Shown: positions 4,848-62,393 of the stretch, piece after piece
Layout: each line of letters opens with the position of its first letter
How positions within the stretch are numbered: the stretch's first letter is position 1
Assembly: GCA_964187785.1 (NCBI GenBank)
Contig: OZ076409.1
Location: forward strand, 28,150,001 to 28,214,000
Direction of reading: 5' to 3'
Length of the DNA: 64,000 bases
Source of the DNA: Amphiscolops sp. MND2022
Lineage: Eukaryota
The notes under the pieces: model-generated
The model's input: only the letters and a program-made list of their open reading frames with translations
The model's database searches: none
What the model was told of the DNA's origin: nothing
Program-made: the position numbers and the translations under genes

Positions 4848-7800
4848 TTAAGATTTAGAAGTTCCAGGAGCGTTTATATTGGAGGACTGATTGACGTCTG
4901 ATCCACTCGTGGGCTTGAAGCAAACCTTTCTACTCTTCTCGGGGGTCTGCTTGCGGGATTTACCTCCTTCTTTCGATGAGGAACTGGAGACGCACTCAGG
5001 GTCGGGCCGGACACCTTTACACAGAGCTTTATATACAGCGACCAGAATCTTGTGAAAATTAGCCCTGCCAAAGCTCTCAACGTGAGTCCAGGGATCTCCG
5101 GGGACATTGCTGCTGCTGAACCGCAACTCCAGATCTTTGAATGTACCCAGGGAAGCTTCAGTAGTACAAGCAGCTACTGCGCCCGAAACGTTGGCGAGAT
5201 AAGACTGGGCGGGCATGATTACGTCGAACAGCCGACTGCGGGGTTCACTACAATCGACCCCAGAAAACTTGACGGCTGGGAGCTCTGGCGATTTGGACGT
5301 GAGGCACAAACAGCTCAGCTGGAAGAGGTGGAATAGATGCTTGCGCATCTTCAGCTCTGGCATTCCCATCAAGGTCACAACCATGTCTGTGAAGACCTCT
5401 GGGGTGTTCTTGGCTCCAGAGTTGACTTCCCGAAAGTACTCTAGAAATTCGACGTACTCGTCGCGGATGTCGGCCTCTGAGGAATTCTCCAACCACCCTC
5501 GCAAGCTGAAGGAACGGTGGAGCGCGGAAAAGCAATATGTGGCCTGCTCAAGAGGCAAGTTCAGGAGGGCTACCGGGTCGAAACTGGCTAGACCCCTGAT
5601 GATACCAGCATTGAGGCTAATATCGGCCAAAAAGACTTTCAGCAGGTGGACGAGATAGCTTCGGGCCTTGGTGGCGAACTCGTCCCGGGTGGCTTCAACT
5701 GCGGCTTCTGTCTCTTCTGGAGTCAACTGCTTTTCGCTGTAAATCCTCTTTACTCGCGCAAGGCAACAAGCATCAAGATTCTCTTTCAACTTCAGCCGAC
5801 TCAGGAAATCGCGGTTTGACAACTGCTTCCAATTTTGTCCCTGCATGTCATCCAGGGCCTTCCAGTCCAAAATCTCTGGAACATGCTTGGGAAGCAGGGC
5901 ACGCGCAGCTAACTTGCGGATGAAGGTGTGGAATTCCCGGAAGGTGTAGAATCCACTGTCCCTTCGCTGGGCAAACTGGCTCTCGAAGCTCTTGGTGTCT
6001 GGAATACAAAACATATATGATTACCCTAATTGGTCCATTCTACGGCTACGGACCTAAAGTTGGAAGTCTACTACATCTTGGTCAGGTTTCTTGTAAAAGC
6101 AAACAAAAATAGGACTCTGTGTCCATGTGACAAGACAAAAGAGGTAGATACTAACAATCACGAACGATCCGCGCGAAGAATTCCAGTTTGATGGTGAAAA
6201 AATCATCGCCGATGATCTCCCATTCCAAACTCTGGGGTTTGTGTTTGACACCCTGGTGCACTTGTGGGGGAGCAATCTTAGTGAGATACTGGTGGATGGC
6301 CTTCCAGTTCGCGATCAATTCGGAGCATATGGCGGGCACGGCAGAAATCTCCGGATGACAGGTCGACATAGCCTATAAACAATATCAAAATTAAAATCGA
6401 CCTGTGGTTGGATCTACAGTCGATGTGACGTTGTCCTTACCTTGACGAATTCAGGCATCAGTGCGGCCCAGGGTTGTCCGCTGCAACCGTCTAGAAAGGT
6501 GACCAGAAACTTCAGCTGCGAGAAGAAGCTAATGGCCCCAAACACGCTGCCCCATCGCTCGTGCATCATGCTGGGTAGACTCAGTGCATCGAATCGGAAG
6601 GGGTACTCTATTCCCTTCTGGAAGAGTTGAGAACGCTCAAGCAGAGGGATCAATTCTGCGGGACACCCAGACACACTCACGATTTGAGGCTGGGCGGACA
6701 ACACAGACAAGAGGCGAGAAAGAGCATGCAGGAAGCCTGCAGCAGGTTCCGAGGCTGTGCGATAACGCAGTAGTCGGACAACGTTGAGACAGTCGCCCTT
6801 CCAGAATCGGATTGACACGAAACTGTAGGTGCCTCGTGTCTCAAACTCCAAGGAGTACTGTCCAGTGACGCTGACGTGGTACGCAATGTCCGCGATACCG
6901 CAGAGGAAGATGTGATGGAAGATCGTCTAAAATGAACCAACAGGGATGAAAATATGCTCAGGCTATAATGGCCTGAAGGACCTAGAGGCTTAAAATGGAT
7001 GATACTTACAGTCAGCGTGGTAGAACCCCAATCGTAGGGGGAGAACAGGTTCTGGTGATTGGTCACGGTGCCAATCTGAGCCCACAGCAGCTCGAGGACA
7101 TGGAGGTCTCCGCATCGGGGAGCAAAGAGGGCTACCATGGAGATTTGGACGCACAATCTGATTTCCTCCTGCCCAGCAACAGATCCTAGCCCGGCCATGT
7201 GGTCCTCGTAGAAAGGATAACTACATCCCATCTCGACTAGGGGAACCTGCATGAAGAAGGGCTTCTCACGCTCTAGCTCAAGAGGGGTTAGCACTTGTCC
7301 TTTCTTCCCTCTGACTTCATGGACGATTCGACCAGTCACTGCGTCCTTCTTCTTCAGGTGTTCATATCTCCAGCGCTGGTCCTTGCGGAAATGGGCCTCG
7401 CACTGGAAATGCCGCACAATCTCTCGGGCGCCTTTGGAGAACATGGACACGTTGGTCTTGCATATCTGGCAATAAAACTTGTGTTTATTATGCTCAGGGT
7501 CCAACGGTCCAGTAACAAAAGTCCGAGTCCACTGTATTCCCTTGAAATAGGCCTCCTTCATTATTTTGCCACTTCGGGCAGGAACTCGGCGGCGTTTGCG
7601 AGGAGGACTAACGGCAGAGGTTTGATCCCCTGTCAAGGTAGCTAATGGCTCATAGTCCGTGGAGCAGAACCCAGGACTAGGAACTTGCTGGCTGGTTGTC
7701 GGCCTACTTGCACTGAGGGAATCTTGAGCAGGAGGACTAGGAGGAGGGGCAATGTTGAGTTCTCTCCCGGTTCTTTGAGAATTCACCACGAACTCATCCT

Positions 7801-8827
7801 CAGAACTGAGGGCTCCACTTGTGTACCCTTCGGTACTAGCGTCACTATCCAGTCCAACTAATCCAGGACTGTCTGACTTCTTGCGGAAGCACTTGACTCG
7901 TTGCCGATTAGGACTCTGTTGAACATTCTGTGACCTGATTCCTACTCGGATGGCTGCTTCCAAGATGTTCTTCATCTGATGAAGGGACGAAGTAATGGTC
8001 TCAGAGGACACAGCGCGCAGAATGGAATGTACTTGGCCCTGATTAAAGGCCACTGTGGCATGCCCGACTGGAAGGATACTCGGATTCGTTTCGCTGAAAT
8101 GTTGATCGATGAGGGTCCGAGCAGAAGCAGACAAAGGCCTAGTAGGACTAAGAAGCTTCGGGGACGGAGCATCAGGCAACCCAGCTGTAGTCGACGGTCC
8201 AGCCTCCTTGGGGACTTCAGACTCCACAACGCTCAAACTCTCCATGTTAATCAGGAAAGGAGGTTCTTTAAGGGTCTCTGCGCCAGAACTGTCAAGCAAC
8301 TCTTCGTTGTCACTTGTGTCAGTTTGGAAATAATCTGCCTTAGCGACAGAAAAGCCAGTTTCACTTCGGATGTCAGCTGCAGGGTCGACATCGACTTCAC
8401 TCGACTCCTGATTGGAGGCTTCTCCCACTACCTGAGGAATGGGGTCCGACTCGGGGACTTTCTCAATAGCTGGATGGACAGCCTTATCTACAATAGCAGC
8501 GCTAGTAGGGGGTAAGAAGGAGATGTCAAGACCAAGGCCCTGGCAACCCAAAGTCTGCAATTGACGGTCAATGTAAGCGGAAATGCTTTCATCCGTAGAA
8601 GGGCTTGGGGTCGGAGCAGTCTTATCAGGATTATCTCCTGGCGGCACTAGTTGTATGGACTCAGGGTCTGCAGGGATCGATCGACCAGCTTCTTCGGGAA
8701 TGGCAACTTCTTCTTCAGTCATGGATGCAGTAGCGGTGACAGGAACAATATCATTTCGCTCTTCGGACGTCATGTCTAAACAGAAAGAGATAAACTCAAG
8801 CGGATAACTTCCTGAGAAAGAGTCCAT
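4848..8827 (-). CDS. Antisense 4-exon gene (8827-7010, 6926-6441, 6372-6156, 5998-4848), ~1223 aa; BED-like zinc finger and NLS; probably derived from a hAT-type transposase
   Basis: GT-AG introns of 83, 68 and 157 nt join four minus-strand ORFs into 3672 nt with no stops; the same intron positions occur in element 2; motifs SPPRKRRR and FYCQICK...RHFQCEAH. The start codon is less certain than the exons. Confidence 0.85.
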
Positions 8828-10054
8828 TACCGCATTAAAAATCTTCCGGAAGTAGATATTTCGAACTCAAGTGAACACTTGTGTTATGGGACAGGAAGTA
8901 CGTGAATGAAATGAGAGCCCTGATCAAGCCTCAGATTAATTCAATACTAAAATAGAAACAAAACCTGAAAAGCTACTGACCTGTTTGAATGCAAAGAAGG
9001 ATGTCTTGAGAAGGGAGTGCTGTGTACAGTTAGACTGGTGGTCACTGAATTGAAAGCTGAGCGATCAGTAGAGGAGGAGGACGAAGCTGGACTGTGGCGA
9101 ATACAGCAGCAGTTGTAAGGAGAAGACAAATTCTTCTTTGATGAGGGACAAGAAAGGTTGCTGGAGATGAATTAGCGAAAAGGGACTCAGTGTCGATTGT
9201 CCTAGGATGACCCAAGAAATCCACAAAAGACGTAATCGGAAGAAATTACAAATGACTACTTCAAATGAATACGGAGTAAATACGACTAGAAGACTAAAAG
9301 ACTAGAGATGATTAAATACTGGACGATAATACAAAGAGTAACTGGAAAGAATTTGAAAATAATGAATTGAAAAGAGAATTGGCAATGTGACAAGATGTCA
9401 AAGTTGGAGTTCGTGGCTATACAGTTTGGTGTCAAATTTACAAGATATTTACAATTTACACTATTATGTGGATAGAGTCTGCCAGCGATATCTACATTCT
9501 TTCATTTATCTTATTTCGAAACTTTACCATTTTATAAAATATTTCATGATTTTACCAGGATTTTATTTAATTTCAGGTCATTTTATATTATTCCTTATAT
9601 GGATTTACGACCTTGGGGAGCCATTTTTACTCAAGAGAAATTTTGCTGCATTCCTATTGGTTAATCAGAAACGCTGATGGACGGCGTGGCCGTCTGCCAT
9701 AGCTTCACCCTCTTGAAACTTTTAAGTGATTGTTGAGTGTTAATAAACACTTGAAGCGACGCTCTTAATATGGAAGTGTTGATAGAGTTGATGTAAGTCA
9801 ACAAAGCCTCGGTCGGCATTTTCAAATAAGACTGAGCGGCTAGTTAATAGACTCTAGAAAGAAGGAATTTTGTTATTGAAAATTTAGTCAGCAAGGAAGG
9901 GAGAAACCCCGGGAAACTGAAACGAAAACTCCCGCAAGTCGACAGAAGGGGAAACCGCCATTGTTTCAGTTTCACTTTTGAAAATCAGCAGCTTCTCAAA
10001 ACTCAAGACTTAAAACCTTTTAGTCAACTGTCCAAGATAGCTAAAAAACTGATC

Positions 10055-10896
10055 ATGGATAAATTCCTGGCAACTCACTTCGACTGTGATTCTCCTCAAT
10101 ATTACCCCGAGGACTTTCAGGGGGCAGCGCCCGGAGACGGAATAATATATATATATCATCGGACGACGACATGGAATGTGTCAGCAGCGCATCTGTTGAC
10201 GACCTAGAAAGCCTGTCTGACGACGATGAGATGGCCCTCCTGGCTCAATGCGTGGAGAGACAGATGGAGCTTCCATCGACATCAGAAGCAATTTCCATCC
10301 CTTCCTCTGCCAATAAACAGGAAGTGACACGCGCCGCGACTCCCAGACTAGCGTACGTCCCTGGGCCTATGTTCGACGCTGGCTATTTTGACTTGGGAAT
10401 TGGCAGAGGGCCAATTGCGAGAGACCCGCGACTAAGGAATGATCACCCGATCAATTTGTGTAGCCAGCTAATCCCTATGGTCGACGCGCCTATGTCTCCC
10501 CCAGCCGTCGACAAATATCCGTCAGGCGACTGGAGAATAGCAGCGGAAGCCGCTACTAGTAGCAAACAAGAACATGCCAACGGAATACACTTCAGGGGAC
10601 CAAGTGGCGCAGATAACCCCTACATCTCAGGATGTACGGACTGCCTCGTCTGCGGAAAATCAGTCGAACAGATTCAAGACGAGGCAGTCATCGACTACCT
10701 TCATAAAACAACCATCCAAGGAGAATCGGCCCTCCAATTCAACGCAAGAAGGCTAGCCTTCCTAGAAGGAATGAAGGTGGGATGTTTTATGCTCATTCCA
10801 GGGGGAGTGTCCCAGGCGTCCGCCTGTGATGGAAATCTTTATACAATCAGTCACGACTACAGGAAGGCGCAGCCCAACACCCTCCCACTGAATTAA
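10055..10896 (+). CDS. Sense accessory ORF (unknown function) overlapping PPT and 3' LTR; +2 frameshift in the (AT)n run near 10145-10156
   Basis: Homologous to element 2 ORF 31727-32579 (YPEDFQGAAPG, AQCVE, NxHPI, PMVDxPMSPP, DCxxCGKS, PGGVSQAxACDGN). Confidence 0.8.
10798..10807 (+). other. Polypurine tract of element 1
   Basis: CCAGGGGGAG immediately 5' of the LTR-start TGT; identical in element 2. Confidence 0.8.
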
Positions 10897-12380
10897 GTTT
10901 TACAAGCAAAACTATATTTGTTGCTTTAAAAAGTCATGTAAAACTCTATATATTTCATTTTGTACAAGTTATATTATGTAATTCTATGTATTAATACGAG
11001 TTAATTGGACACCAAGGCGTACAGGTAAAGGAAACGCGTTCAAATGTTTTCTTGCCTGTCGCCTTGGTCCGCAAGTCCGACTAACTCGTCATCCAATCAT
11101 AGCGCAGTGTTATGTAACCTTTACTCGTGCTAGCTTAATAGATTAAAGGACTAGACAGCTATATGCCGCCTGCTAATAAAGCGCCGGGCTGTACCAGTCT
11201 ATTGGACACTGAGTCCGCGCTTTAATTGAGAGTGCTATTCTATCTAGCAGTACTGGTTATGTAATAATTAATCTTTTGATAACTAATAAAAGGCGCTATT
11301 GGTCCTCAAAGGACTGATTTAATATTTTAGACTTAGTTTGATGGTGTTGCTTCATATGTAATTTGCGCAATATATTTAGTTTAGAATATATGTAAAATTA
11401 CTATCTATACATGTAGTAAGCATTTCATACATGTAATATGTATTTCATACATGTAGTACGTTGCTCAGTATGCATGTAAGCAGTTGCTTGTCCTAACGGA
11501 CTCATGGTCCCGCCGCCATATTTGCCGCCAAGAGGGACCTTTGATCTATATGATGTAATGTTGACGTTGCCTGCTATTTATAGATTGTAGCTATATTTAG
11601 AAAGCCCTTAAGGCTATTTTTAGAATATGATCACCATTTTATTGAGTGTCATGCAGATTCAAATATATATAACCGGGACTGGTGGTCCCGGGGACAGAAT
11701 TATTCTGACGATACTTTGATACGTTACTGTTGCATTACTGTTGCGAACTGTTTATTAAAACTACCCGTTCATTTTCACTTTGCAAGCCCGAGATATTAAT
11801 TTAAATTCTTGCCTCTTGCAATAATCTCTTATGCCTTCTACTAGACGTCAAAAGGCCAAAGCTAGGAGATCTAGAGAAATGGACATGCTGTCCGACTATG
11901 ATAACCTAGATGTGATGCTGGGAAATGAAAATAATAATCCCATTGAAAGAGAACTAGCCGAAGTGATAGATCAGTCGTCGGCCCACGGGGACGATGATAC
12001 AAACGTGTACCATGAAAATGAGTTCAGAGATTACTTACATGAAAATGAACCTTTGAGGCAAAACGAAGTCAGACAATCCTTTGAGGCCTTTTCAAGTGAG
12101 TTTAATCTTAGATTGTCTCAAGAAATGGAATCTATGATGTCAATAATGCATAGCCAAATAAATAGAGCTATAACAACAGCTATAGCTGAAAGAGTTATTC
12201 CAGAAATTCAGAATATTGCGAACTCGATGTCCTCTATGGGACACAGGGACACTGAGGCCAGTTCGTCCCCAAATAGTCAGGAGAACAGGGAAAGCGCACC
12301 CGGGCCTAAAATAAAAATTGCAAAGAAAGATTCAAGATCTGTAGGTGACTTAAGAGATACCATGGGTCATGGTTCTTACA
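10808..12380 (+). repeat. 3' LTR of element 1 (1573 bp)
   Basis: TGT...ACA termini; start homologous to TGTCGCAGGC of the other LTRs; TATA-like box near 11663; contains gag-N ORF. Confidence 0.88.
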
Positions 12381-16400: not shown

Positions 16401-19400
16401 ATTACGGCCAAAACTCAGCGGACGTGAATTCTCAGGCTGAGATTAACAAGTTGTCGAGTGAGTTAAACTCTAGAATATCTAGAGAAATGAATGAGATGAT
16501 GAGTAGCGTTAGTTCTCAAATCCAAAGGGCCATAAATGAGGCTATAGGTACTCAAGTCTCAAATTCAAAATGTCATGATGGCCGGATTGGGACGTGAGAC
16601 TAGGAGAGGATGGGAAACTTCTGTTGAGAGACCGGAAATTAACTCCCAAATTCAGTTTAATTTCAACGTGAAAAATAATCTTAGAAATGAACAAAGTGAT
16701 GACCACCGCAATAGCGAATTCACTAACCGAAATGTTCATGACAGCCGGACTTGGCCCTTAGCGGTTTCAGGAGTTTCTCTAAAAAGTGGTCTGATCAGTG
16801 TGAGGTCTGTGGTCTGAAGAGAAAAAAGGTCACTGTAAGAGTCGGGCATTTTTCCTTGAAAGGAAAAGGCGCCGACTGAAAAGAAAATAGCAAAACTGAA
16901 CAGTGTGGAATTTTTCTTCGTGTACAATCAATGTTGTTCAAAGTACCGATTCCTTCAATTACCTCTCCCGCGTTGTTGTGGTAACCAATTTATTCATAAC
17001 TTATTTATTTTATTTTCCGCCTTCATAAAGTTATTTGTGTAGAGGAAGGAAAATCACCATCAGTGTTGTGGTTTATTGCCAAAAATCCACATAGTGGAAA
17101 AATCCATTAACTTCTTCAGTTACTTAAGTGAAATAGATAAATTTGTCACGGTGACCCAGTCCATAGGGCGCTCGCCTGCCAATCAGTAGGTTGTGGGTTC
17201 GAACCCGGGCTGGAACCTCATTTTTTTCTGCTTTCCCAGGCAGCACCTCGTCTTTGCCATACTTTTTTGCTTATTTCAGAAAGCTTCGTTTTCGCTCGGG
17301 TTTGCAAGCCTCGTTTTCGCTAAACCTTTTTGCAATATGATTGTTGCAGAAAATTACCCTGTGGTAAGCGGGCATCTTGTTACAGTTCCGTGTGTGCTAG
17401 TACAGAAACAAATTCGTGATTTCATTCACTTCAACTGTTTCAAACTAGTTAGTTTTTCTTTGATCGTCTCGATTTACTAGTTTCCTTCCTGTTCCCACTG
17501 CAGCTAAATCGCAGATTTTGGAGGATGCAGCAGCAGGATTATGCACAAGGCAAAATGCCCATAGGATGCCATAATGGACCTATATAACGGTGATCAATCT
17601 GCGCGAAGAGCGTTTCAAGGGCTTTCTAACGATAATACCAAGTTGTCTTTCAAAATATACCGTTTATGTCAGGAGAAGGTTTATTCGAGACATGTCGTCA
17701 AAAAGAAACGACACAGTTCGTTATGCAGCTCGAGATCTTTCAAGTACACCGGAATTACAATTGAACCCTGGAGTTATTCCGCGAGTTCGGAGAAAAAGAT
17801 GGTTGGAAGCAACATAATGGAAGAGAGGAGTTATTCTGAGCAAGAAAAACAAATAACAAAGTATGAAAATTGCACAAAGGTATGCTAACTGGACACCGGA
17901 AGACTTCAACCGGGTGATTTGGTCGGCTGGAACAAAAGTGAACAGATTTAGTTCAGAGATGCCCTCGCCTCAATATTGGACCACCATGTGCAACGTACAT
18001 TCAAACACAGAAGTTTTAGATTAATGCAATGGAACTGTATGGCATAATGAATCAACCAGGCGTGTAAAAGGAAAAACATGGATAATTGGATTCATTGTGA
18101 GACTTTATCAGATAGTTTAATGGGAACATTGAAACACTACGGATAGGGAACTAATTACATACACTTCAACCGGCTAATGACTCTAAACATACACTTGGGT
18201 TAGCAGAGGACTTGTTCGTGCAAAATAAAATAACAGTTACTGTCGCAGGCTGCCGCCTGCGATGGCAACATCTACACAATTGACCATACGAGGCCAACCG
18301 CCCTACCTGGGACACTCCCATTGTAAACTAAAACTTTCAAACATTTAGTATTTTTTTGAATATGTAATGTTGATTGATGAATTGTTTTATTATTTAAAAT
18401 ACATTTGACAGCAAGCTACACTGACAGGCGGAAAGGAAACGTGTTCAAATGTTTGCCTGTCCAGTATAGCTAGCTAAGCCGTCCATGGTCAATTGGCCAA
18501 TCAGAGTGCAGTTTATAACAGCCATCTTATTACTCATTACGTAACTGCGCTAGTAGCTATTTAGAATGGACCAATACGGCCAATTAGCTTTGCCGGCCTT
18601 AATGTAATTTGATGCTATACTTGAATGATATTCAGTAACTACAAATAGGACGAAAGCGGCTATGTGACATAGCCGTCCCTATTCACTGTATTAATTGTCT
18701 TGGTGCTATACAGTAAATAAGGCCTACCACGGCCGGTTGACACGATGAACACTCAAGTGCTGTATACTGACCACAAGAGATTGGTGTCACAATTGATTAG
18801 TGATGAAAAGACACAAGTAGCCCTCCCCCATGCAATAACAAAACGCATATATTGTTGACATGTAGTGTTGCTTTTCGTATTATACTGGGATCAAATTAGA
18901 AAGCCCCAACGTTTACAGGCCATATAGGGCTTACATGTATGTGCTCAAGTGTAATATTGTTTTGTGAAACTGAAAGGGAACTGAAAGTCCCTTACAGTTA
19001 CTTACCATATGTATTTTACATGAATTATGTTTACATGTAAAAGTGTTGATATATATTACGTTACACATGAGTGTTATTACCTACTCGTCATATGGCCTAA
19101 ACGGGCGTTTTGATCTAACCGCTCACGTAGGCCTACGATGATGTCATGTTGCTATTTATAGTGCTGACGTATCTATTTTTAGTTTGCGTTGCTGTTTTTA
19201 GTATCATGACCATAACAATTTTGCCTGTCATGCCCTCTGGGGTATATATACCCAAGTCGGCCTGACAAAGGTTAATCATAATTTTGCAGTTACCTGATAC
19301 ATCACGCTCATTTTTGATTAACCTGAATATAGAAATACTTGTCCACAGGAACAATGCAAATATTTTCTCCTGGAATAACGTTTTCAATGCCTTCTACGAG

Positions 19401-22400
19401 GAGACAAAAAGCCAAGTCTAGGAAATCCAGTGAATTAGATATGTTGTCCGATTACGGCAACATGGACGTGATGCTAGGTGAGAGAAATTCCCACTCTATA
19501 GAAAGAGAACTTGATAGCTTGATTAACGTCCCTGAGGGACAACGAGACTTTCAGTCCTTTCCGAATAGAGAAAATTGATCTCAAGAAAATGAGATTAGAG
19601 ACATCGATAGTAGAAATGAACTTGTTAGGGAAAGTAGACTGATAGAGTCTATCAATACACTATCTGGGGAAATGAATGCTAGGATGTCACGCGAGATGGA
19701 GGCTATGATGGACCTAATGCAATCACAGATTACCAGGGCCATTAGTTCTGCTATAAGCGAGAGAATTCTTCCGGAAATACAGAATATGGTAGAAAATTTG
19801 CCTTCGGGCCAACATGACGTTGAGCCGGGTACGTCCTTAAATGAGGAAGGAATCAGGAATGCATGGAAGAATACAAATACAAGATTAACAAAGAAGGATT
19901 CAAGGTCCGCTTGTGATCTGAGAGACCACACGGACGTTAGCCCTTACATGGTGACAGGAGCTACCGAACTCCAACAGCCGATTCCTGAATTCCTCACAGG
20001 ACGAATTCACTCTCAGCCAGACCTCCAAAGGCAAGAATCTGCACATGACGCAACTCTGGATACAACTCTGCCAGTAGCGGAGCCCGTTCCGGCAGAACAG
20101 CCATTGGACCCTATCAACCGAATAGCTGATGTCCTGGTAAACCTCCAAAACAAACCACAGTCGATGACAATCAGACCAGTCACGACGAACCCCATGACAT
20201 TCGACGGCAAAACAGAGAAATTTGAATTGTTTGAAGATTTATTTCATACAATGGTAAAGATGCAGCCCGCTATGACGGAACAAATGAAAATAAATCATTT
20301 TCATTCATTGCTCCGAAAAGGAGCCCTGCAGCCTTTCCGAAATATAAAATCCATAAACCGTCAAACATTAGAGGACGTATTGGTCATATTCCGCAGAAAG
20401 TACGTCAAACCTGAGTCCCAGGCCACAGCTAAACACAAATGGCATAGGCTCATCTTCGATCCCAACACAATGAAACTACCCGATTTTCTTGAGGAACTCA
20501 ACCAGGGTGTCGAGAAAGCCTTTGGGGAAAACGCCAAGAGCATGATCGATAGCCTCTTATACGCCAAATTACCCCCGAAACTCAAGAGATCAGTGAAAAT
20601 GGCCCGACTGGAAAACGGGACCTACGAGGAGATTGTGGCACATCTGGAACGAGAACTCGAGTTAAACGCATTAGAAGAATCTGATGACCTACCCATTGCT
20701 ACAATGGCTTCGTCGTCCAACAAATCCCGAAATTTACTATCCAATGGCATTGACACCAACAAAAATAACCAATGCTCATACTGCAAGGCAGAGGACCACT
20801 TCTGGAAAAATTGTCCAAAACTGAAAAAGAAGAAAGAATCAGAGGCCAAAGACGGCAAGAGGCCTCAACGACAAACTTATCCAGAATGCCCCACCTGCAG
20901 CAAAACCAATCATCCAGCAGAGAAATGTTGGCGTGGCGCTGGTGCCCATCTTCGTCCAAACGAAATAGACAAGACTCCTCCAAAGATACGGAGCCCTCTG
21001 AAGACGAAGGCACTCGCACCAAGAACGAAAAATCCACAACGTCCTCATCAGGCCAATCGAATTCCAAAAAGCCTGAATCAAAAAACTAATTTTGCCACGA
21101 CTCCAACTCTCTGATCAAATGTCGATACGACAATATGTCGTATCAGACCCAGCTAATATCGCCTACAAGCAATCACAAAAGGACACACAGGGACCCCATC
21201 GACTGTCTGGCAGCAGCAGATGGCGGAAGCCTGTACTCAAACCCAATACATTATTCACAGTGACCACCCATATCTATATCGACGTAATAACCTCACTAAA
21301 GACTCAGAAACCCAATTCCGACCCTTACAAATTGTCGAAGACTACAACCCCAATACTATGACCCTGAGTACGGCAAAGACCCGTACTGGGATGATGATAT
21401 ATACGATAGGCACAATTTACAATTTCGGAATGATGACTACCCGCCAACAGATGATGAGGATGACCCTGACATTGTGGACACCATACTGTCCCGGGCACTC
21501 ATCGAACCGTGGCAACCAAATTTTGATGCAATCAAAGATCAGCCGCATGCAGAAGAGACACAGGCCACACCTGGCCTCCTCGACGAGACAGCCTTCATAC
21601 ATGTCCTTGTAACTAAAGAGGGAGAACCAGCATACATACCCTTATCCACAAACCTCGGACTCAAATACAAAAAACGGATGCTATATTTCCCGATGGACTT
21701 TGGGGAACTAACCATAGACGGCCTCATAGACACTGGAGCGCACTCCAGCGCAATACCGGAAGCAGACCTCAGGAAAATACGCCTACTGGCGCCCCAATCC
21801 ATAGTCAAAGAGGGACCTGCCCCGACGTTTCAAATTATGGTCGCAAACGGACAATTGGAAACCCCAAAGAGCACTGTTGAACTCAGGTTCGAAGTCGGAG
21901 ATATTGAATTCCACGAAATATTTATAGTAATGGAAAAACTGACTGGCCCTATCATAGGACTAATGTTCCTCCAGAGGAATCATACAGTACTGGACATGCG
22001 ACAAGGCATTCTCAATTTCCCATATTTCTCGATGCAACTCAAAACGGCTGACCATAAATACTCCAACGTACTGGAACCAATACTTAACCCAGACGCTATC
22101 ACAATACCACCCAATGACCGTACTTTGGTAGAGATCAAATCCCAAATATACAATGAAAACACGGTCACAGGAGTGTTGCAACCCAGTGATCTCCTCCATG
22201 AAGAAGGCGACATCAGATTCTGTGCCGCAATAGTCGCATTGACTAGTGGAAACGTCAACGTTCATATCACCAATTTCACAGACCAACCGTACAAGCTTAA
22301 AAAGGGGCTACACATAGCAAACTTTTCCGTACTAACACCGGAATAGATGAAACACGTCAAACCAATTGACCCTGGTGTCCACCCTGGTGACCCTGGCATC

Positions 22401-25400
22401 TCCTCAATGAAAACGAAGAGGATGCGATCTACTATGTCAGTAGTCTACTCAAGGCTAACCGGAACAATGACCAATATGAGCAGTACTGTTTCCCAACGCC
22501 AGAAAACCCAGGGAACGAAGATTCCCATACTCCCATCCAACGACGAATTCTTCAAGAATTACGAAACCTCCAAGAAGCTGAACAATTGAATCCTCAGAAT
22601 GATGATGAGTCACTCCGCAAATTCCTTGGCAATTTCGACTGGAAAGACTCCATGCTGCAACAACATGAAATCAAAAAGATCGAATCGCTTCTAGTCGAAT
22701 ACCATGACATATTCGCACGACACAGATTTGACATCGGAGTGAATGAAGAATTCACGGTCAAACTGACCCCTAAGGACGATTCGCCCGCTTACAACCGAAG
22801 TCTTCCAACTCCAGTCAATTCAGAAGAGGACATACTTGTCGAACTGGCCCTCTTACACAAATATGGCATAATAACTACCCTGCCCTTTTCGAAATACCCC
22901 AGTCCCATATTCGCACAGAAAAAGCCGAATGGGAAGCTAAGACTACTAGTCGACCTGAGAAAAATTAATAACCTCATTTCGGATGACTACATAAACAACA
23001 ATCATCCGGTTAGCACTCTAACAGACGCTGCACAACATATGGCAGGAAAGAAACTGTTCTGTAAACTTGACTGTTCACAGGCATACCACTGCCTACCAAT
23101 GGCGGACCAAGGGTCCGTTGAGATGCTTGCGTTCAATTTTGCAAGCCGCACATTTGCGTATAGACGACTTGCTCAGGGCCTTAGCAGAGCATTATCAGCC
23201 TTTTCAAGTTTCATGAGGGAATACCTGGATAAAGTTATCAAAGCTGATCAATGTGCCCAATATGTGGACGACATCGGCATAGCCGCCAACGACGCGGATC
23301 ATCTCATCAAAAATTTGAAAGCCACCTTTGAGTGTATCAGACATGCGGGCCTTAAACTAACAAGGCACAAATGTCACTTTGGGGCAACGGAAATCGATTT
23401 TTTGGGAAGAACAATTACCCCGGAAGGTGTCAAACCACAAAAGGAGCGAATAACAAACTTCCTAGGAAAAACCAAATTCCCCAAGTCTAAAAAAGCTCTG
23501 CAAAGATATCTTGGTTTCCTCAATTATTACAAGAACTATATCCCAAGACTATCTGAAAAATTAGCCCCTTTCTTCCAACTTCTCAAAAAAGACGAAAAAG
23601 TCCTAGTGACTACAGAACTAATACAACAGTTCAATGAAATCAACCGGGTTGTCAACAAATGTAGCCAATTGGATCTGAAGCAACCTTTGCCAAACAAGCA
23701 ACTGGTCCTGATGACAGACGCTAGTTTCACAGCGGCCGGCTACGCCATACTTACCGAGGACGACCCAAACCAGAAATATTCATCTGTCAAAAAATCATAC
23801 GCTCCAATTGCATATGGCTCAAAAACTTTTACGCCATCGCAACTCAAAATGTCCATATACGCCAAGGAATTCTTAGCGATTTATTACGCATTCAAAGAAT
23901 TTGAACATATTTTCTGGGGAGCCCCTAAACCGATTACTATCCTCACGGACAACAAATCGGTCACGAGATTCTTCCAGACGAAGATAATCCCTCCAACACT
24001 CTGGAATGCATGTGACTATGTAATACAATTCAACTTTGTCATAGCACATATACCAGGAAAAACAACACAGCAGCCGACTACTTATCTCGCATGGAAATGG
24101 ACCCCAGAGAGAAACTAATCCTTAAAATCCGCGAAGACATAGAGACTAAGCCCATCGAGGTCAATGTCCAATCGGCAGGCGTTGCTGAAGAGGAACAGGT
24201 TTTCTTCACGGTGCAAGATGATGAGACAGAAGCTCAAATTTGGGAACGTAAAAAACAAAGCCGAACTAACCCAATCGACCAAGAAGGCGTAATTCAAATT
24301 GACGCAATATCTGAAAATTTAGTAGTTGAAATTACGAACTTTACCCAAAAATTACGCAGAACGAATCAAATCTTACTTGAACAATCCAAGGACCCTATAC
24401 TGCGCCAACTCAAAGCCAAAATTCAGACGAAGACTACTCTAAAGAGCTACTCCAGCAAGATATCCGATACAAACACTACCTCAACAACTTGGACCGAATA
24501 GTCCTTAAAGACGAAATAGTCACACGACAATATTATGATGAAACTGGACAAGTCAAGTATCACCAGGTTCTCTTACCAAAACACCTTTTGACAGAATTCT
24601 TACAGGCCTTATCCGGAACGGCGCACAAACACCCTGGCATATCGAAAATGTTACAAGAAATCCGACAGAAATACTACTACCCCGGTATAGCAAAACATGT
24701 AAAAAAATGGGTAGAAGGATGTGTAACTTGCGCAAAAGATAAACGGGTTCCAAACAACACGATAACACGTGAATTGCTTAACTTGCCAGAATGGGACCTT
24801 GGACCAGAGGGCGCAATGCAAATCGATTTACTCCCAAACTTACCAACAAGCGGGGGTTACCAAACAGTGATGACAGCAACAGATGTCTTTTCAAGATATC
24901 TGTTTGCCTACCCGCTAGTTGAGGCAACAGCCTCTAACACGGCAAAGGTCTTAATAGACATCATGACAAAGCACTCATATTTGCCAACTACGATCATCAC
25001 CGACAAAATTTTACATGCTTTTACATCAAAAATTATTGCAGAGATAACGCGAATCTTGGGAATAACCCTAAAATGTGCGACGACTAAACATCCACAAACA
25101 ATTGGCAAACTCGAGAGAACTCACGCCTCATTGAAGACAAACTTGAAAATGGCCTCAGGGGAAAATCGCCGTCAATGGCACAAATATTTGCCACTAGCAG
25201 TGCTCAATTATAACACAACTTATCATTCCAGCATCGGTTGTGAACCGAGCAAGGTCTTTCACGGAAGAGTTCCCTATAATGTTCTTGATCATAAACTTGG
25301 AAACAATCCTAATAAGGATTTCCTCCCGACGACAGAATTTGCTGAAGAATTACAACAGAGAACGAAAGTTCTCATTGACAAAACGAAGCATAACATTATG

Positions 25401-28400
25401 CAGTCCTACTTGAAATACAAGGAGTACTATGACCGAAAAGCCAAGGCAGCTCCTCTCAGCGAACAAGATTTTTGTTTTATCCTACAGCCTAAAGCGGATA
25501 ATCAAGGATCAAAAATACCATTTAGAGAATATCGCTGGATCGGTCCTTATCGAATTGAAAAGGTATTACCTAACGACAATTACATTGTCCGCCGGTTAAA
25601 TACGAATAAAACACAGATATTACACCGAATCCGCCTGAAAAAATTTGTTCCAAACACGTCTTTAGAGGACAAATATGCCAAAGAGAAATTGCAACCAGAT
25701 GATGAAATAATCATACCGCAAGATGATTTATACACCATCTCATGGGAAGCAGATTTTGACTACCATGTCTTCGAGCCGAGACGAGACGATAATACGGACG
25801 AAGAATCGCAAACACCAGACAGCGATGCTGGTGTCACGACTAGTGATTACGTCATTTATGACAACGCTGATGACAACGCGGTAAGGCCGGGGACGGCCAC
25901 CAGCCGAGACGGCACAATCACACGAGACGCAAATGACGTCACGGAATTGAATGAACGAACCAAAAAGAATGAAAATGAAGCGGGACCGAGTACGGCCGCT
26001 AGCTGAGACGCACCTATAGTGCATGACGAACATGACGTTAACGAGAATGCTGCGCGAGATGAACAAAGCAGCGAAACAGGAATGCCGAGAACGGCCACTA
26101 GCCGAAATAGCCACAATGGTGGCAACACACCACCTAGTTCAGGAAAGAACGCGAATGACGTCACAAATGAATTAGAAGGCGAGAAAAACTCTCTTGATGA
26201 GGGGGATGATATTACCGTGCCCGGAATATCGAATGAAAAAACAAATGAAAAAACTGATGAAAACTCTAGCCCTAGAGGGGGGAAATACAACCTTCGACCT
26301 AATCCCAACCCCAACTATACTGATGAATACAGATACTAGTCAGAAATGTTAAATTGTGTCCCTCTTTATTTTATTGCCCGAGATGGCATGTTTTTTCACT
26401 GGGACCTTTCTTACTTTAAAACAGACTAACTGCATAAATATACAAACAGAAAACTACTACGAAACAAATATACAAATTGAAAGTGTAAAATAACAAATGT
26501 TCTCTATGTACATTTAGTCTTTAGATGAGCCTTGACGCAGCTCCTTCACCGTCTTGGAAATCTCGCTAGGAGGGATGTCGCCGAAATAAGCCAATTCCTG
26601 GGCTTTACCAGCACAGCAGAGCTGGAAACAGAGGATGAACGAGACGTAGTGGCAACCACAGCAGTTGGAACTCCTTTCAGATTTTTGTAAGCCGTAGTTA
26701 ACGTTTTGAGGAAATGGGCTCGACCAAGAACGTCCACATGAGACCAGGGATCTCCGGCAAACTGGCATGAAATAAACTGGTCAGACAATTCTTTGTATGC
26801 AGCCAAAGCGGACTCAGTAGTGCAAACGGCTATCGCATCAGGGCAGTTGGCCAGATAAGACTGTGTAGGTAGAATCACAGCGGAAAGACGACAATTCGAA
26901 CTAGATGTATCTTCATCCTGGAATTTGACAGCTGGAAGGTCATGATGGTCCTCAGTGATGCAGAGACAACAGAGCCTTTATAGACGAGTAAGCACTGCGT
27001 AGGTAGTCCACAAACTCGAAATATTCATCTCGGCACTCGCTCTTAGAAGCTTCGTCTACCCAGCCTCGAACTCGCAAACTATCGTACAGGGAATCGAAAC
27101 AGAAAGTAACCTGGCTGAGCGGCAGAGAGAGCAATACGTGAGGGTCGAAACAACCCATCCCGTGCACAATGTTGGCGGTGAAATGCACGTTGCGCAACAG
27201 AGCCTCCAGTAAGGACACAATGTAACCTCGGGTCTCAATTCCAAAATTCTCCCTCTCTTTGGCAATGAGGGCATCAAGACTTTGTTGGCCTGGCTTTTTA
27301 TCATCTTGATGTCGTTTTATTTTGGCTCGACAAGCTTGGTCCAAGTCGGTCTCCAATTTCAACCGGCTCAGGAAATCACGGCTGGATAACTGTTTCAAGT
27401 CATCGGGGCACAATTGAAGGAGCTTAGTCCATTCGGCATCATCAGGAGTACAAGAATCGCCCTGTGACACAAGCGACGAATAAAGCGGCAGTTAGGAAGA
27501 AGCACATTTGGGTGCATGAGTTCTGGTAGGGAGATGGCTTCAAATCGGAATGGATATTGAATCCCATTCTTGAAAAGACCGCTGGTCTCAAGGGCGCGAA
27601 AGACCATTTCCGTAGACAAACAAAGTTGCATCTCGTCGTCCTGCCAGGCTGCGTTCAAAACACTTTGTATCTAAATAAAATACAGACTCAAAACGTGAAA
27701 ATGAAGCTCCATAGCAAAAGCGTGCTAAATATGACCTAGTGGCCGAGCGCGGCAATTGGAAAAAGATGGAAATTAGAACTAGACAAACATAGGAAAGGAA
27801 CTAACAATCTCGGACCAAACAGGAGAGGAACTCAAGCTTGACGGTGAAGAAGTCGTCTTGGATTATCACCCATTCTAGACTCTGTGGCTGAAAAGGGAGA
27901 TTACGCTTTCAAAGGAGTAAGATGCATGTTATACTGGCTTAAGACAACACTGGGAAATTGGGACCATCTTACACCGAAGCGGAATGAAAGGTTAAAGATA
28001 TACAAACCTTGTTCTTGACACCTTGCAAGACTTGTGTTGGGGCCGTCTTCGTCATGAAGTCAAGGACGTTCTTCCAGTGTTTGATGAGTTCAGTACACAG
28101 AGCTGGGATTTTCTTCAACTGAATGTCGCATGCAGCCGAAGCCTACAAAGTGGGGACGAAATAACATGGAAAGATCTGAGTTACGTTTACCACAAAAGGA
28201 AAACTCAACTACAAAACTGCTGACGAGGAAATAAAAACCAAAACGGTGGATCAAAAATAGATGAAAACCTTGCAAAGCTCCGGACACTGTAGGGCCCATG
28301 GCTGGCTCTGGCACCCGCGCAGAAAGACAACCAGATACTTGAGTTGTGTGAACATGTCGATTCGGCCGAAGACATGCTTAGTTTGAAGCACATTTGGGTG

Positions 28401-31400
28401 CATGAGTTCTGGTAGGGAGATGGCTTCAAATCGGAATGGATATTGAATCCCATTCTTGAAAAGACCGCTGGTCTCAAGGGCGCGAAAGACCATAGAGGAA
28501 CAGCCAGAAACACTGACCAAGCTGGGTTTGGAGGAAGTGGAAGACAATACGTGCGAGATGGCAGACAAATAACAATCTGGATAAGCCTCCCCTTGGTGGT
28601 GGCGATAAAGTTCAACTCTTGCCAGTGTGTCATTCTTCCAAAACCGGATCGATAGGCAACGGTAAACGCCCTGGGTGGTAAACTCAAGCGAATACAAACC
28701 ACTGGAGAAAACATGTCCTGAGATGTCGGAAAGTCCGCGCATGAAGATGTGGTGGAAGATGTTCTGAAAAAGAGAATATGGGCTCAATCGTAGTAATTTC
28801 ACAACGAATCACCATCAGGATTCTAGGAAAAGAAATACTTACGGTAAGTGTAGCGGACCCCCCGTCGAAAGAAGAAAACAGGGCCTGATGGTTGGTGAAT
28901 TGTCCGACTCTAGTCCAGAGACTTTGGAGTAGTGAGAAATTTCCGTCCTTGGGAATGAAGGTGCCAATCAGGGAAATTAGAGTGCTAGTCCTTAAGTCAT
29001 CAGGGTTAGTGATACCCCCAATGCTGGCCATATAATCTTCAAAAAACGGAAACCGATCTCCTGCTTCGATCAGAGGGACATCCATGAATAACGGTTTCTC
29101 TTTCTCTAATTCGACGGGAGTAAGCACCCAGTCGTCTTTGCCTCTGACTTGGTGAGTCACATTGCCGGTGATTTCGTCGGTTTCCTGCAAGTGTACATAC
29201 CTCCACTTCTGGTCCTTCCTCAAATGGCCCTCTGTCCTGTAGTGTCGCAAAATCTCCCTAGCGCCCTTGGAATATATTGACACGTTCGTTTTGCACAGCA
29301 TACAATAAAATTTGAATTTGTTGTGTACGGGATCGAGAGGCCCAGACACGAAAGTCCGAGTCCACTGGATGCCTTTAAAGTAAGCGTCTTTCATGACTTT
29401 TCCTGGCTTACTAAGCAGTTTCCTTCTTTTCCGCGGAGGACTGGGAGTAGCTACATCGGATCCTCGTGGCCGTCTAAGGACGGATAATGGCTGGTGGTCA
29501 GTGCTGCTGTATCCACTTCCGATAGTGGGAGTCGTGACCTCAGCGCGAGACGTGCTGGGAGTGAACCTAAAAGGCGTTTCAGGAAGTTTTGTTCTTGATC
29601 CAGTCTCACTTACCCCATCTATCCCAGATATGGACCCCACTTGATACGGGTCCTCGTCAAAATTGAACGCCCCGCTCGTATAGCCGTCACTGGTATTTCT
29701 TCCGAAACTGCCTTCATCACCTGAACTGCTAGAAGGCCGACGAGCTGGTGTAGGGCAACGCCGAGGCATACTTCTCTTCTTGTCTTGTGAAGTCCCACTA
29801 GTGGCATGTAGCAAGAGAGATTTCATCATGTGATAAGAAGATATCACAGACTCATCGGCAACAGTGCGAAGGATGGCGTGGACCTGATCCTCATTAAAGG
29901 CAATGGTCGTATGACCGGCTGGCAATTGGACGGGGGTGGCCTCTGCGAAATACTTCATAATGACCGATCTTCCTTTGACTGATAGTTGCCTATCGGAATT
30001 GGCAACCCTAGCGCGATATTGCTCCTGCTCTGTGTCGCTGTGGCCAGACTCGGCCCGGAATTCTCCCTCGAACTCGGAGAAAGCAGAAGGATCCCACGCC
30101 ATGGAGGACGTAATGGGAGGAAATGCATCTAGGCCAGAACTATCTAAAAGTTCTTCAGCATCGCTAGTGTCTCCATAAAGGGGAGCAGCTCCAGATTGCG
30201 AAGTCGACTCGGGCTCATTGGCAGGTCCAGTTTTCTCCTCGCTCACGTCCTGACTAACGACGATTGGGTCAGAGACAGAAACTTTCAAAAGTTCAGGGAA
30301 GATTGTCGACGTAACTGTGGCAGGCATAGGTATCGGTATGTCACTGATCTCAGATTCACGTGTTGGGAATTCCATACATGTGGCGATTCTTTCAATAAAG
30401 GCAGAGACGCTCTCCTCTGTAGACGGACTAGAAAAGGACGTTTGGGACAAAGGCCGGACAGGGTCAACTTGTGCTGCGTTACCTTGCTGCTCTACTTCAG
30501 TAGATCCGTTTCCATCACCACCGGGAACAGTGGATTTTGGCATTTCCTTCTCAGAAGACATATCTAAACAGAAGGATATAAAGTTTTGCGGATAACTTCC
30601 TGAATATGAGTCCATGAACAACTGCAATTAAAACCTTCCGGAAGTGAAAAGAAAATATTCCAAATGCTAAACTTGTTTAGTGAAAATGGACAGGAAGTCA
30701 ATGAACGAGAGGAAAAGCCCTGATCAAGCTTATTTCCGTTCAAAAATTGAAAAGACCAAATAGCTTACCTGCGGATGATGGACGTATAAGGACTGAAGGC
30801 AGTTGCTCACAAATGCAAGAGTATGTGTTGCACCAGTATGCTCGGAATAGCAATGAAGGACCGATGAGGCCAGATGAATTGCAGGAGTGAAAACGTGGAA
30901 GATGAATTGGAGAAGATTCCAAGAAGGAAAGTGACGGTAGTGGCGTCGGGACAGAAGCGTAAATAGCGACGGAAAGAAAATAAACTGTTCGCTGATGAAC
31001 TGATTTAAAATGATGAAGACTAAAAGACTGACTAAAGACCAAGTAAACAATGGATAAATACGAATATGGAAATGTAACAATTAATGAATTGGAAGAAGAT
31101 GAAAGTGATTGCAAGAGCAAAGTTGGAGTTCGTGGCAAACTGGATTTGATGTCAAATATTTTTACAATTATGAGAAATATTTTGTGGATGGAATCGGCCA
31201 GAGAAATCCACATTAGTTATATTTCGAAACATGCAATTTCATTATTTTATTATCCTGGTTATTTCAATAATTTATTATTTCCTTATTTGGATTATTATTT
31301 TAATTCCGCTATTTTGAAATGAAGGCGGTAAAGACGATTGCTATTGGCTGTCGCGGCGATGCGCCGCGCGTGGCCTTAAAACTTCATCACCCTCTCTTGA

Positions 31401-34400
31401 AATTCTCAAGTGGATATCAAGTGGAGATAAACACTCAGCGGTGTCATTGATGGCTCTTCGCCGCGTCGGGCAAACGACTGAAGTGATGATGTAAACAAGG
31501 CGGCTTGTTGGAACCATCAAAGGATGTTTAGGAGAATTTATTAGTGAAACGATCACCGGGAGAGATGAGACCCCGGGAAAAAATCATGAGACTTGAAAAT
31601 CTTTCAGACGAAGTCAGCAAGGAAAAGTTATCATTCTCTCTTCTGAAGCTTTCAATAACAGTTGGTTAGCGGAACTTGAAAATTCCAAAACTCATTCCAA
31701 TTCTTATAAAAATTGCTAAGAATTTCATGAATGCAAGATTCATGGCCGCCCTATACCCTGAAGACTTCCAAGGCGCAGCGCCCGGCGGTGTAGACATAAT
31801 CTGCCTATCCAGTGACGAAGAGGAGGAAATGGGCGACCAGAGCTTGAATTCAGTGCTAGACCTTCAATTGTCATCAGAACGATGAAGAGATGGATGACGA
31901 AATCATGATAATGGCCCAATGTGTCGAGGCGCAACTATCATCTCCTATCCCAATACCTGGTTCTTCAATAGCTCTGCGAATTAGAGATGAAGCCCCCCAA
32001 CATAACTTGCCAAGATATGGGACCTCTGGGACGAGCTTTGCAGTGAGGCCTACTCTCGACCAATCCTTCTTCTCACTAGGGAAGGGAAATGGCCCGATAC
32101 GGCGAGATGACCGCGTGCGCAACAATCACCCTATCAAGTTGTGTAGGGAAATCATTCCAATGGTAGATACACCTATGTCGCCCCCACCTGAAGAGAGAGG
32201 ACCAATTTACGATTCCTATTCGGTGGACGGTCAGAGCAAACTCTCCCGACAGTCCTTGGACACGGTTGCAAACCATTTCCAAGGAATGGAAATTGAGACG
32301 AACAGCCCAATGGGGAATTACTCAGACTGTGTGATATGTGGAAAATCTACCTTACAAATTCAGAGCGAAGCAGTCACGGATTATTTGCGCAAGACGGCCA
32401 TTTTGGGAGAATCGGCAGATCAGCTAGAGGCACGCAAAAGAGCTTTTATGGAAGGAATGCAGGTGGGCACTTTCCTATTACTACCAGGGGGAGTGTCGCA
32501 GGCTGCCGCCTGCGATGGCAACATCTACACAATTGACCATACGAGGCCAACCGCCCTACCTGGGACACTCCCATTGTAAACTAAAACTTTCAAACATTTA
32601 GTATTATTTTGAATATGTAATGTTGATTGATGAATTGTTTTATTATTTAAAATACATTTGACAGCAAGCTACACTGACAGGCAGAAAGGAAACGTGTTCA
32701 AATGTTTGCCTGTCCAGTATAGCTAGCTAAGCCGTCCATGGTCAATTGGCCAATCAGAGTGCAGTTTATAACAGCCACCTTATTACTCATTACGTAACTG
32801 CGCTAGTAGCTATTTAGAATGGACCAATACGGCCAATTAGCTTTGCCGGCCTTAATGTAATTTGATGCTATACTTGAATGATATTCAGTAACTACAAATA
32901 GGACGAAAGCGGCTATGTGACATAGCCGTCCCTATTCACTGTATTAATTGTCTTGGTGCTATACAGTAAATAAGGCCTACCACGGCCGGTTGACACGATG
33001 AACACTCAAGTGCTGTATACTGACCACATGAGATTGGTGTCACAATTGATTAGTGATGAAAAGACACAAGTAGCCCTCCCCCATGCAATAACAAAACGCA
33101 TATATTGTTGACATGTAGTGTTGCTTTTCGTATTATACTGGGATCAAATTAGAAAGCCCCAACGTTTACAGGCCGTATAGGGCTTACATGTATGTGCTCA
33201 AGTGTAATATTGTTTTGTGAAACTGAAAGGGAACTGGAAGTCCCTTACAGTTACTTACCATATGTATTTTACATGAATTATGTTTACATGTAAAAGTGTT
33301 GATATATATTACGTTACACACGAGTGTTATTACCTACTCGTCATATGGCCTAAACGGGCGCTTTGATCTAACCGCTCAAGTATGCCTACGATGATGTCAT
33401 GCTGCTATTTATAGTGCTGACGTATCTATTTTTAGTTTGCGTTGCTATTTTTAGTATCATGACCATAACAATTTTGCCTGTCATGCCCTCTGGTGTATAT
33501 ATACCCAAGTCGGCCTGACAAAGGTTAATCATAATTTTGCAGTTACCTGATACATCACGCTCATTTTTGATTAACCTGAAAATAGAAATACTTGTCCACA
33601 GGAACAATTCAAATATTTTCTCCTGGAATAACATTTTCAATGCCTTCTACGAGGAGACAAAAAGCCAAGTCTAGGAAATCCAGAGAATTAGATATGTTGT
33701 CCGATTACGGCAACATGGACGTGATGCTAGGTGAGAGAAATTCCAACTCTATAGAAAGAGAACTTGATAGCTTGATTAACGTCCCTGAGGGACAACGGGA
33801 CTTTCAGTCCTTTCCGAATAGAGAAAATTCATCTCAAGAAAATGAGATTAGAGACATCGATAGTAGAAATGAACCTGTTAGGGAAAGTAGACTGATAGAA
33901 TCTATCAATACACTATCTGGGGAAATGAATGCTAGGATGTCACGCGAGATGGAGTCTATGATGGACCTAATGCAATCACAGATTACCAGGGCCATTAGTT
34001 CTGCTATAAGCGAGAGAATTATTCCGGAAATACAGAATATGGTAGAAAATTTGCCTTTGGGCCAACATGACGTTGAGCCGGGTACGTCCTTAAATGAGGA
34101 AGGAATCAGGAATGCATGGAAGAATACAAATACAAGATTAACAAAGAAGGATTCAAGGTCCGCTTGTGATCTGAGAGACCACACGGACGTTAGCCCTTAC
34201 AGTTACCAACCGGCTTTCACAATCACCGGAAATGATCCAACATAAAACGACGCCCGCTAAGCACCGGGATATTTTCCGCTAAAAAAACGCATCAACGCAT
34301 CAGCCCGGGTTCGACCCGCGATCTCGTGTGGAGATGTGCTAATGAAAATGGGAAATTGGTCAAGTAACTAAATAGTCAAATAACTATATAAAATAGTCAA

Positions 34401-62361: not shown

Positions 62362-62393
62362 TTACAGAACAAAATTTTAACTAAATTTTTACC

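Follow-up and report, generated by a model that had tools for sequence, protein, structure and literature searches.

A Gypsy retrotransposon lineage of Amphiscolops with a five-exon antisense gene and a sense reading frame running into the 3' long terminal repeat

Antisense accessory open reading frames (ORFs) of retrotransposons are known mainly from plants, judging from the accessible parts of PMC7264820 and PMC11963269. The closest analogues of the system described here are the Retand/Tat Gypsy elements (Grande with gene23, RIRE2 and Retand), for which antisense ORFs and the TRP28 domain have been described; according to the accessible text of the same two papers these ORFs resemble no other transposable elements and are of unknown origin and function, and the word 'intron' does not occur in that of PMC11963269. 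Here we describe an animal instance in a stretch of 64,000 nt from Amphiscolops sp. MND2022 (assembly GCA_964187785.1, host genome 1.07 Gb; contig OZ076409.1, our C1, positions 28,150,001 to 28,214,000), hereafter called the window. It contains a Ty3/Gypsy (Metaviridae) element, element 2 (18241–34201), and most of a diverged relative, element 1, at its left edge. The family resembles Retand/Tat in its antisense ORF, present in 30 of 30 copies, but differs from that plant, TRP28-bearing lineage in that its antisense gene has five exons and encodes a finger and a predicted RNase H-like core, and in a second, sense gene lying across the polypurine tract (PPT) and U3. The lineage offers a candidate origin for such a gene, introns that have been kept, numerous young copies and alleles swapped in nature, so that its origin, selection and binding targets become testable.

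The bdelloid rotifer elements Juno, Vesta and TelKA are also animal and Gypsy-type, with extra ORFs common to other element types and a dUTPase between protease (PR) and reverse transcriptase (RT), an arrangement that basidiomycete elements have as well (PMC5408684). The ORF3 of these rotifer elements is of env-like, GDSL or DEDDy type, and the accessible part of that paper shows no antisense coding gene and does not contain the words 'transposase' and 'intron'. CERV of the C. elegans element Cer1 is likewise a spliced nuclear accessory protein of an animal Gypsy element, but it is encoded in sense, has exons in common with gag and serves the export of genomic RNA; 'antisense' is absent from the accessible text (PMC10309623). 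The plant mobile domain (PMD) is common to Gypsy elements and DNA transposons (MULE) and has been speculated to counter silencing, but it is accessory in nature rather than a remnant of a transposase, and is confined to plants as far as the accessible part of PMC5418596 goes. The corresponding parts of PMC2774666, PMC13524379 and PMC9911081 hold no comparable layout. A first-pass annotation of the window, made by a model from the letters alone, had suggested that the lineage may be undescribed; this stands for the literature searched, in which no account of the layout was found, while one may exist in subscription papers, supplements, Repbase, Dfam or GyDB, which lay outside the search.

Layout, family-wide presence and selection of two accessory genes

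In both elements gag-pol is followed by the antisense multi-exon gene, the spacer and a sense ORF that runs through the PPT into the long terminal repeat (LTR), as the first-pass annotation had proposed (Table 1). Its further structural claims proved correct, with details added here: i) element 2 is bounded by 1708-bp LTRs, identical in 1683 of 1708 columns and ending in TG...CA, with GTTAC at either flank; ii) the LTRs of the two elements can be aligned in only two short patches (197 nt at 67% and 160 nt at 72%); and iii) both extra genes are cargo inside the element. Between the antisense and sense ATGs lie 1.11 kb in element 2 (30615–31727) and 1.23 kb in element 1 (8827–10055). All four genes of element 2 (gag, pol, the antisense gene and the sense ORF) are broken, exon E of the antisense gene by a 109-nt duplication (27499–27607 = 28385–28493) and another frameshift.

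Thirty of 150 listed integrase matches were taken at about every fifth row, irrespective of cargo. All 30 have the complete set of antisense-gene parts together with the sense ORF, in unchanged order; the sense ORF was uninterrupted in 20 and the spliced antisense frame in 13. Since these are the closest copies, they are probably the younger ones. The layout was repeated in each of 16 elements from distant subfamilies (83–98% identical to element 1 in RT-RNase H, RT-RH), which were chosen by their antisense gene; their LTR pairs are 97.2–99.9% identical where both were found, and 5-bp target-site duplications (TSDs) are readable in at least 9 of the 16 mapped elements. The lineage is large and recently active; first looks returned 7,781 candidates with the antisense finger region, 14,859 with integrase and 7,727 with a distant last exon, none of these being copy numbers. 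Two elements (L112–L113 and L116–L117) have large pol deletions, yet retain both accessory genes and both LTRs.

The antisense gene consists of five exons encoding about 1200 aa. When the exon boundaries of element 1 were transferred by peptide alignment to 35 other copies, GT or AG was found at 272 of the 280 splice positions mapped. Exons C and D are fixed in length and exon B measures 486 or 495 nt in nearly all copies, with introns of 62–173 nt; the spliced frame is open over 1198–1270 aa in 16 of 36 copies and reaches up to 1365 aa in four others. An artefact of the strand opposite pol was considered and rejected, the gene having no overlap with pol and splice sites of its own.

Both accessory genes are under purifying selection. 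The first-pass annotation had named dN/dS (non-synonymous over synonymous divergence) as a check on them, and the values obtained, mostly 0.06–0.2 for the antisense gene and about 0.15 for the sense ORF, are not near 1. For the antisense gene, pairwise medians by dS bin were 0.21, 0.21 and 0.06 (12 unsaturated pairs), with 107 of 120 pairs synonymously saturated at a median pN (proportion of non-synonymous differences) of 0.34; for the sense ORF they were 0.14–0.17 across three bins (33 pairs), with 102 of 136 pairs saturated. Over the saturated pairs of the two genes pN is ~0.34–0.36. Integrase gave 0.02–0.27 for comparison, and in all cases the pairs are not independent of one another. The single very close sense-ORF pair, with a dN/dS of 0.87, speaks against such constraint. 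Part of the conservation of the sense ORF within the LTR may also be driven by nucleic acid, because its last 28 codons overlie a conserved hairpin with a 10-bp stem at the start of U3 (18241–18264 in element 2). Across the LTR starts of 13 elements, 7 of the 10 pairs are invariant (one of them T-G), and the others show G-T wobble and one two-sided change.

Some copies lack individual introns precisely. A single lineage, comprising element 1, F9, F10 and L001–L010, is without intron 3; F7 is without introns 2 and 4, and 2 of 110 database proteins examined (P0089 and P0140) are without intron 4, so that one genomic copy documents the loss of introns 2 and 4, with two database proteins in addition for intron 4. 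Because intron 3 occurs in the D, F and element 2 lineages, and the sister clade described below has intron 2 as well, loss is the simpler reading. Losses of such precision point most readily to recombination with spliced antisense mRNA, which is indirect evidence that the antisense gene is expressed and suggests that a second mRNA made by the element can be written back into it.

In a sister clade (L138–L147; RT-RH identity ~60%, identical Leu primer-binding site), a profile search (E 1e-5 to 1e-6) recovered a distant homologue of the antisense gene from four of the five elements, the fifth being disrupted. The homologue is very divergent and has extra N-terminal exons, with GT/AG at the three homologous splice sites checked in 4/4 elements. 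No sense ORF was detected in the sister-clade elements, and the antisense gene is therefore probably older than the sense ORF. One sister-clade element (L146–L147) has an insert with long frames that by eye resemble a tyrosine-recombinase or other DNA element. The RT tree was drawn from sequences of this genome only. No named homologue occurred among the best 120 of 345 RT matches, a search of metagenome contigs for relatives found none, and the two protein homologues that were tested (P0077 and P0178) both map to this genome.

Among the 30 integrase-picked copies (L012–L041), integrase, the antisense gene, the sense ORF with U3, and U5-gag behave as freely combining blocks. For example, L015 and L024 are 99% identical in integrase, 62–66% in the antisense gene and 96% in the sense ORF, and L015 and L025 94%, 97% and 71%, respectively. 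The spacer is a frequent crossover zone; its position between divergent genes and shared motifs such as CTTCCGGAAG, found in 5 of 8 spacers, suggest that it serves as a two-way promoter region. The two accessory genes had been taken for a joint regulatory module. They occur together in all 30 copies but are not one obligate unit, because the modules reassort and the sister clade lacks a detectable sense ORF.

In uninterrupted copies the sense ORF encodes 254–290 aa with the motifs IICLSSDEEE, PxSPP, CxxCG and AACDG; SPP and CxxCG are invariant and C-D-G lies at the LTR edge. The hydrophobic-then-acidic motif (IICLSSDEEE), present in 11/11 full-length ORFs, is one we take to be SUMO-interaction-like (SIM). 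An env identity was rejected, as the protein has no signal peptide or transmembrane (TM) segment (maximum 19-residue hydropathy 0.9–1.4 in 12/12). The parallel with complex retroviruses drawn at first pass, to HTLV-1 HBZ and HIV Nef, is one of position only (an antisense gene; an ORF over PPT and U3), with no homology found and no env here. HBZ is a short bZIP protein made from a 3' LTR promoter, whereas the five-exon antisense product matched no bZIP in Pfam and PDB searches. Nef is myristoylated, whereas Gly2 is absent from 11/11 full-length sense ORFs, for which Pfam and PDB searches returned no family or solved relative.

Identity of the antisense protein

The low-complexity N-terminal part of the antisense protein (43–48% S/P/E/D/T) is followed by a finger whose C, C, H and H are invariant in 21/21 proteins, and a nuclear localization signal (NLS)-like run is present in 16/20. 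Fifteen of the 21 fingers matched zf-C2H2_ZN292 of Pfam below the cut-off and one matched zf-BED at E 0.86; the finger appears BED-like. The model of exon B (mean predicted local-distance score, pLDDT, 59) has the topology helix, three strands, helix, strand. In a fold search of 48,161 chains with this model, Hermes, named beforehand, ranked first with a weak Z of 5.7 (guide Z 8; root-mean-square deviation 3.9) and the most aligned residues (119) of the listed rows; it was followed by kinase/actin-like and ribosomal folds (Z 4.9–4.5) and P-element transposase (4.2), with ISCth4 transposase also in the list. A second fold look placed four Hermes entries on top. The Atlas features of exon E lie near the GTF2IRD2/FAM200 and Dimer_Tnp_hAT clusters (0.85–0.87, which is below 0.9 and a lead only).

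The order of finger, predicted RNase H-like core and helical region is common to the antisense protein, hAT transposases (Hermes 8edg, 4d1q and 2bw3) and the dead or domesticated GTF2IRD2 and FAM200. However, the antisense protein has no DDE, CxxH or PF05699 match, has a long low-complexity N-terminus, and is borne by a retrotransposon rather than by the host or between terminal inverted repeats (TIRs). The positions of the catalytic first and second Asp and of CxxH are not kept (forced alignment of 9 rows with 7 hATs of this genome), and exon E has no near-invariant Glu. As far as its sequence can tell, the protein is not an active transposase.

Several results weigh against a transposase origin. 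Hidden Markov models performed no better against hAT ORFs of this genome than reversed controls, and hhalign of the antisense protein with hAT gave a probability below 1%; these sequence tests are weak, because the hAT set is mostly Ac-type with one Tip-type (assigned by motif). The antisense protein has no Pfam or PDB match, PF05699 had no match in 31 members, and a search for a longer homologue found none. The Hermes Z is below 8, was obtained on a model of pLDDT 59 and differs by less than 1 from that of unrelated RNase H-like folds; for exon E, whose model is well predicted (pLDDT 82), no match, not even Hermes, was found in the sets pdb, pdb_via_wide and viral. The Atlas scores stay below 0.9, and exon B has no Atlas match. 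Foldseek with exon B returned nothing at E 0.001 or better, and a DUF4371 search gave nothing significant and was uninformative. TRP28 (PF04195) had no match in the protein. No inverted repeat of at least 40 nt flanks the gene, shorter TIRs not having been searched. On balance, descent from a DDE transposase is probable. We favour hAT ancestry in particular with more reserve, the sequence profiles not having confirmed it, and with similar reserve expect the protein to bind DNA.

Proposed role and alternatives

We propose that, long ago, a Gypsy lineage acquired the intron-containing gene of a DDE DNA transposase, most likely a hAT, in head-to-head orientation to pol. Its introns would survive retrotransposition because the antisense orientation keeps them unspliced in genomic RNA, as follows from the mechanism. 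The transposase would have lost its nuclease activity and retained its NLS, zinc finger and fold; transcribed from an internal promoter in the spacer, the gene would yield a nuclear DNA-binding protein that aids the expression of its own element or its escape from silencing. Since the modules reassort, the variable U3 is an unlikely target, and a site conserved across subfamilies would probably serve instead. The sense ORF, acquired later, may encode a separate nuclear adaptor directed, via its SIM-like motif, towards SUMO-marked chromatin factors.

A nuclear DNA-binding helper of element expression is, tentatively, the most likely function, and a pro-expression or anti-silencing role is a possibility that we hold more loosely. 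More doubtful is the fullest version, in which a dead intron-bearing hAT transposase has become the sequence-specific chromatin factor of a Gypsy superlineage, with a SUMO-binding counter-silencing partner and allelic cassettes swapped in a silencing arms race. A trans-acting helper should let cassette deletions spread, yet 0 of 30 copies are cassette-less; a cis role therefore fits better, which counts against the proposal. Domestication of transposases by hosts is well known, and domestication by another class of transposon, if true, would extend it.

The cassette's presence in 30/30 copies would be expected of a cis-preferring function, such as a role of the dead transposase at integration, where it would bind LTR ends or chromatin and guide the pre-integration complex, mostly of its own element, to particular sites or into the nucleus. 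Binding to element ends is established for the fingers of hAT transposases; the LTR hardly varies in its first 24 nt whereas U3 does, and the NLS-like run would also suit this role. However, the G-T pairs tolerated in the terminal hairpin (pairs 2, 5 and 8) suit a single-strand structure better than a double-stranded site, it is not evident how a protein translated separately would enter the particle, and the LTRs of the sister clade start differently, with another hairpin. We consider such a role unlikely, though it fares best among the alternatives.

Rather unlikely as well is an origin outside the transposases. In this view a zinc-finger protein, either novel or of host origin, would carry an RNase H-like or actin-like domain of unrelated descent and act on RNA, in its export (as Rev and CERV do), or on chromatin; this estimate partly overlaps those of the other alternatives. 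The negative outcome of every hAT sequence test, the kinase/actin-like and ribosomal folds within 1 Z of Hermes and the lack of a fold match for exon E all fit it, and CERV is a precedent for a nuclear accessory protein in an animal Gypsy element (PMC10309623, accessible part). The hAT-like order of the domains and the first rank of Hermes, with its 119 aligned residues, argue for a transposase instead.

Less likely again is a braking role, in which RNA or protein from the antisense unit would restrain element expression as a form of copy-number control, as HBZ opposes Tax. The antisense transcript is predicted to converge on pol and to terminate beside its stop, and a SIM-bearing partner could recruit repressors; control by antisense double-stranded RNA is discussed in the accessible part of PMC7264820. 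However, a role of the RNA alone would leave a dN/dS of 0.06–0.2 over ~1200 codons unexplained, and the lineage is very abundant, even if its 7,781 first-look candidates are not a copy number. Refuted in substance is the view that the gene is part of an active hAT transposon or of one nested recently, or that it is neutral DNA that was captured: hATs are common in the genome (2,215 first-look candidates for PF05699), but the catalytic Asp and CxxH positions are not kept, position and introns are unchanged across clades down to 60% RT-RH identity, and purifying selection is strong.

Other features of the elements and the window

The coordinates of both elements are given in Table 1. The gag ATG lies within the LTR (19387 in the 5' LTR, 33640 in the 3' LTR), and the primer-binding site (PBS) is located inside gag because gag begins there; in other copies gag is uninterrupted (570–581 aa). 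The tRNA 3' end matching the PBS gave 956 pattern matches genome-wide, against 0 for a control, and ARAGORN called one of six loci with such an end a tRNA, as tRNA-Leu(CAG). Ends of this tRNA-Leu-like kind form a dense tandem array, ~240–300 bp apart, at G000:C8:35587000-35637000 and beyond. In 3/3 copies for which the frame relation was computed, pol lies in the -1 frame after AAAAAAC. Its order, PR-RT-RNase H-integrase, is of Gypsy type with a dUTPase-like insert between PR and RT (Pfam E 3e-5, over the cut-off, in element 1; 3e-4, under the cut-off, in element 2). The PPT is purine-rich in the mapped elements except for the D subfamily (L042, L045 and L047), in which ACACCCGCAG, not purine-rich, precedes the 3' LTR; the LTRs of these elements are still 97.5–99.9% identical.

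Table 1. Features of elements 1 and 2 (window positions unless stated otherwise)
Feature	Position	Strand	Remarks
TSD GTTAC	18236..18240	.	second copy 34202-34206
Element 2 5' LTR	18241..19948	+	1708 bp; contains first ~560 nt of gag
gag	19387..21114	+	CCHC knuckles; stop near 19577 breaks this copy
PBS TGGTGACAGGAG	19949..19960	+	within gag frame, directly after 5' LTR; complementary to host tRNA-Leu(CAG)
AAAAAAC, putative frameshift site	21080..21086	+	at end of gag
pol	21157..26339	+	Pfam and ORFs; fragmented in element 2
PR (Pfam)	~21711-21977	+	
dUTPase-like (Pfam)	~22092-22322	+	
RT (Pfam)	~22919-23416	+	
RNase H (Pfam)	~23615-24004	+	
Integrase (Pfam)	~24621-25640	+	
Antisense exon E	26514..27670	-	all-helical region; broken in element 2
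Antisense exon D	27806..27887	-	82 nt
Antisense exon C	28008..28142	-	135 nt
Antisense exon B	28269..28763	-	predicted RNase H-like fold; closest structural match Hermes
Antisense exon A	28843..30615	-	ATG 30615; S/P/E/D/T-rich N-terminal part, NLS-like RKRR, C-x2-C...H-x5-H finger
Spacer between divergent genes	30616..31726	.	CTTCCGGAAG at 30635; CTATTGG at 31341
Sense ORF	31727..32579	+	crosses PPT and first 86 nt of 3' LTR; frameshift near 31880
PPT AGGGGGAG	32486..32493	+	doubles as sense-ORF coding sequence
Element 2 3' LTR	32494..34201	+	1708 bp
Element 1 5' LTR	L011:6943-8557		left of window; TSD GGCAT; LTR pair 97.2% identical
Element 1 pol	1..4611	+	element begins left of window, in L011
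Element 1 antisense gene	4848..8827	-	predicted 1223 aa
Element 1 antisense exons	8827-7010, 6926-6441, 6372-6156, 5998-4848	-	intron 3 precisely absent (within 6372-6156)
Element 1 sense ORF	10055..10896	+	frameshift within AT repeat near 10150
Element 1 3' LTR	10808..12380	+	

A third, unrelated Gypsy element with a strong C skew occupies 52672–63530 (RT-RH ~25% to element 1); its integrase is followed by two frames, one of 489 aa and low complexity, the other (62385–63530) rich in Cys, with a hydrophobic N-terminus and an env-like look. LTR pieces of related subfamilies, recognized by the gag start and the terminal hairpin, lie at 16139–16597 (+), 39399–39815 (-), 43352–44092 (-) and 40905 (-). 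A segment of ~800 bp with internal repeats of ~185 nt is duplicated at 42112–42882 and 45617–46405, and a short frame at 34920–35270, calmodulin-like by eye, is possibly a host exon or pseudogene.

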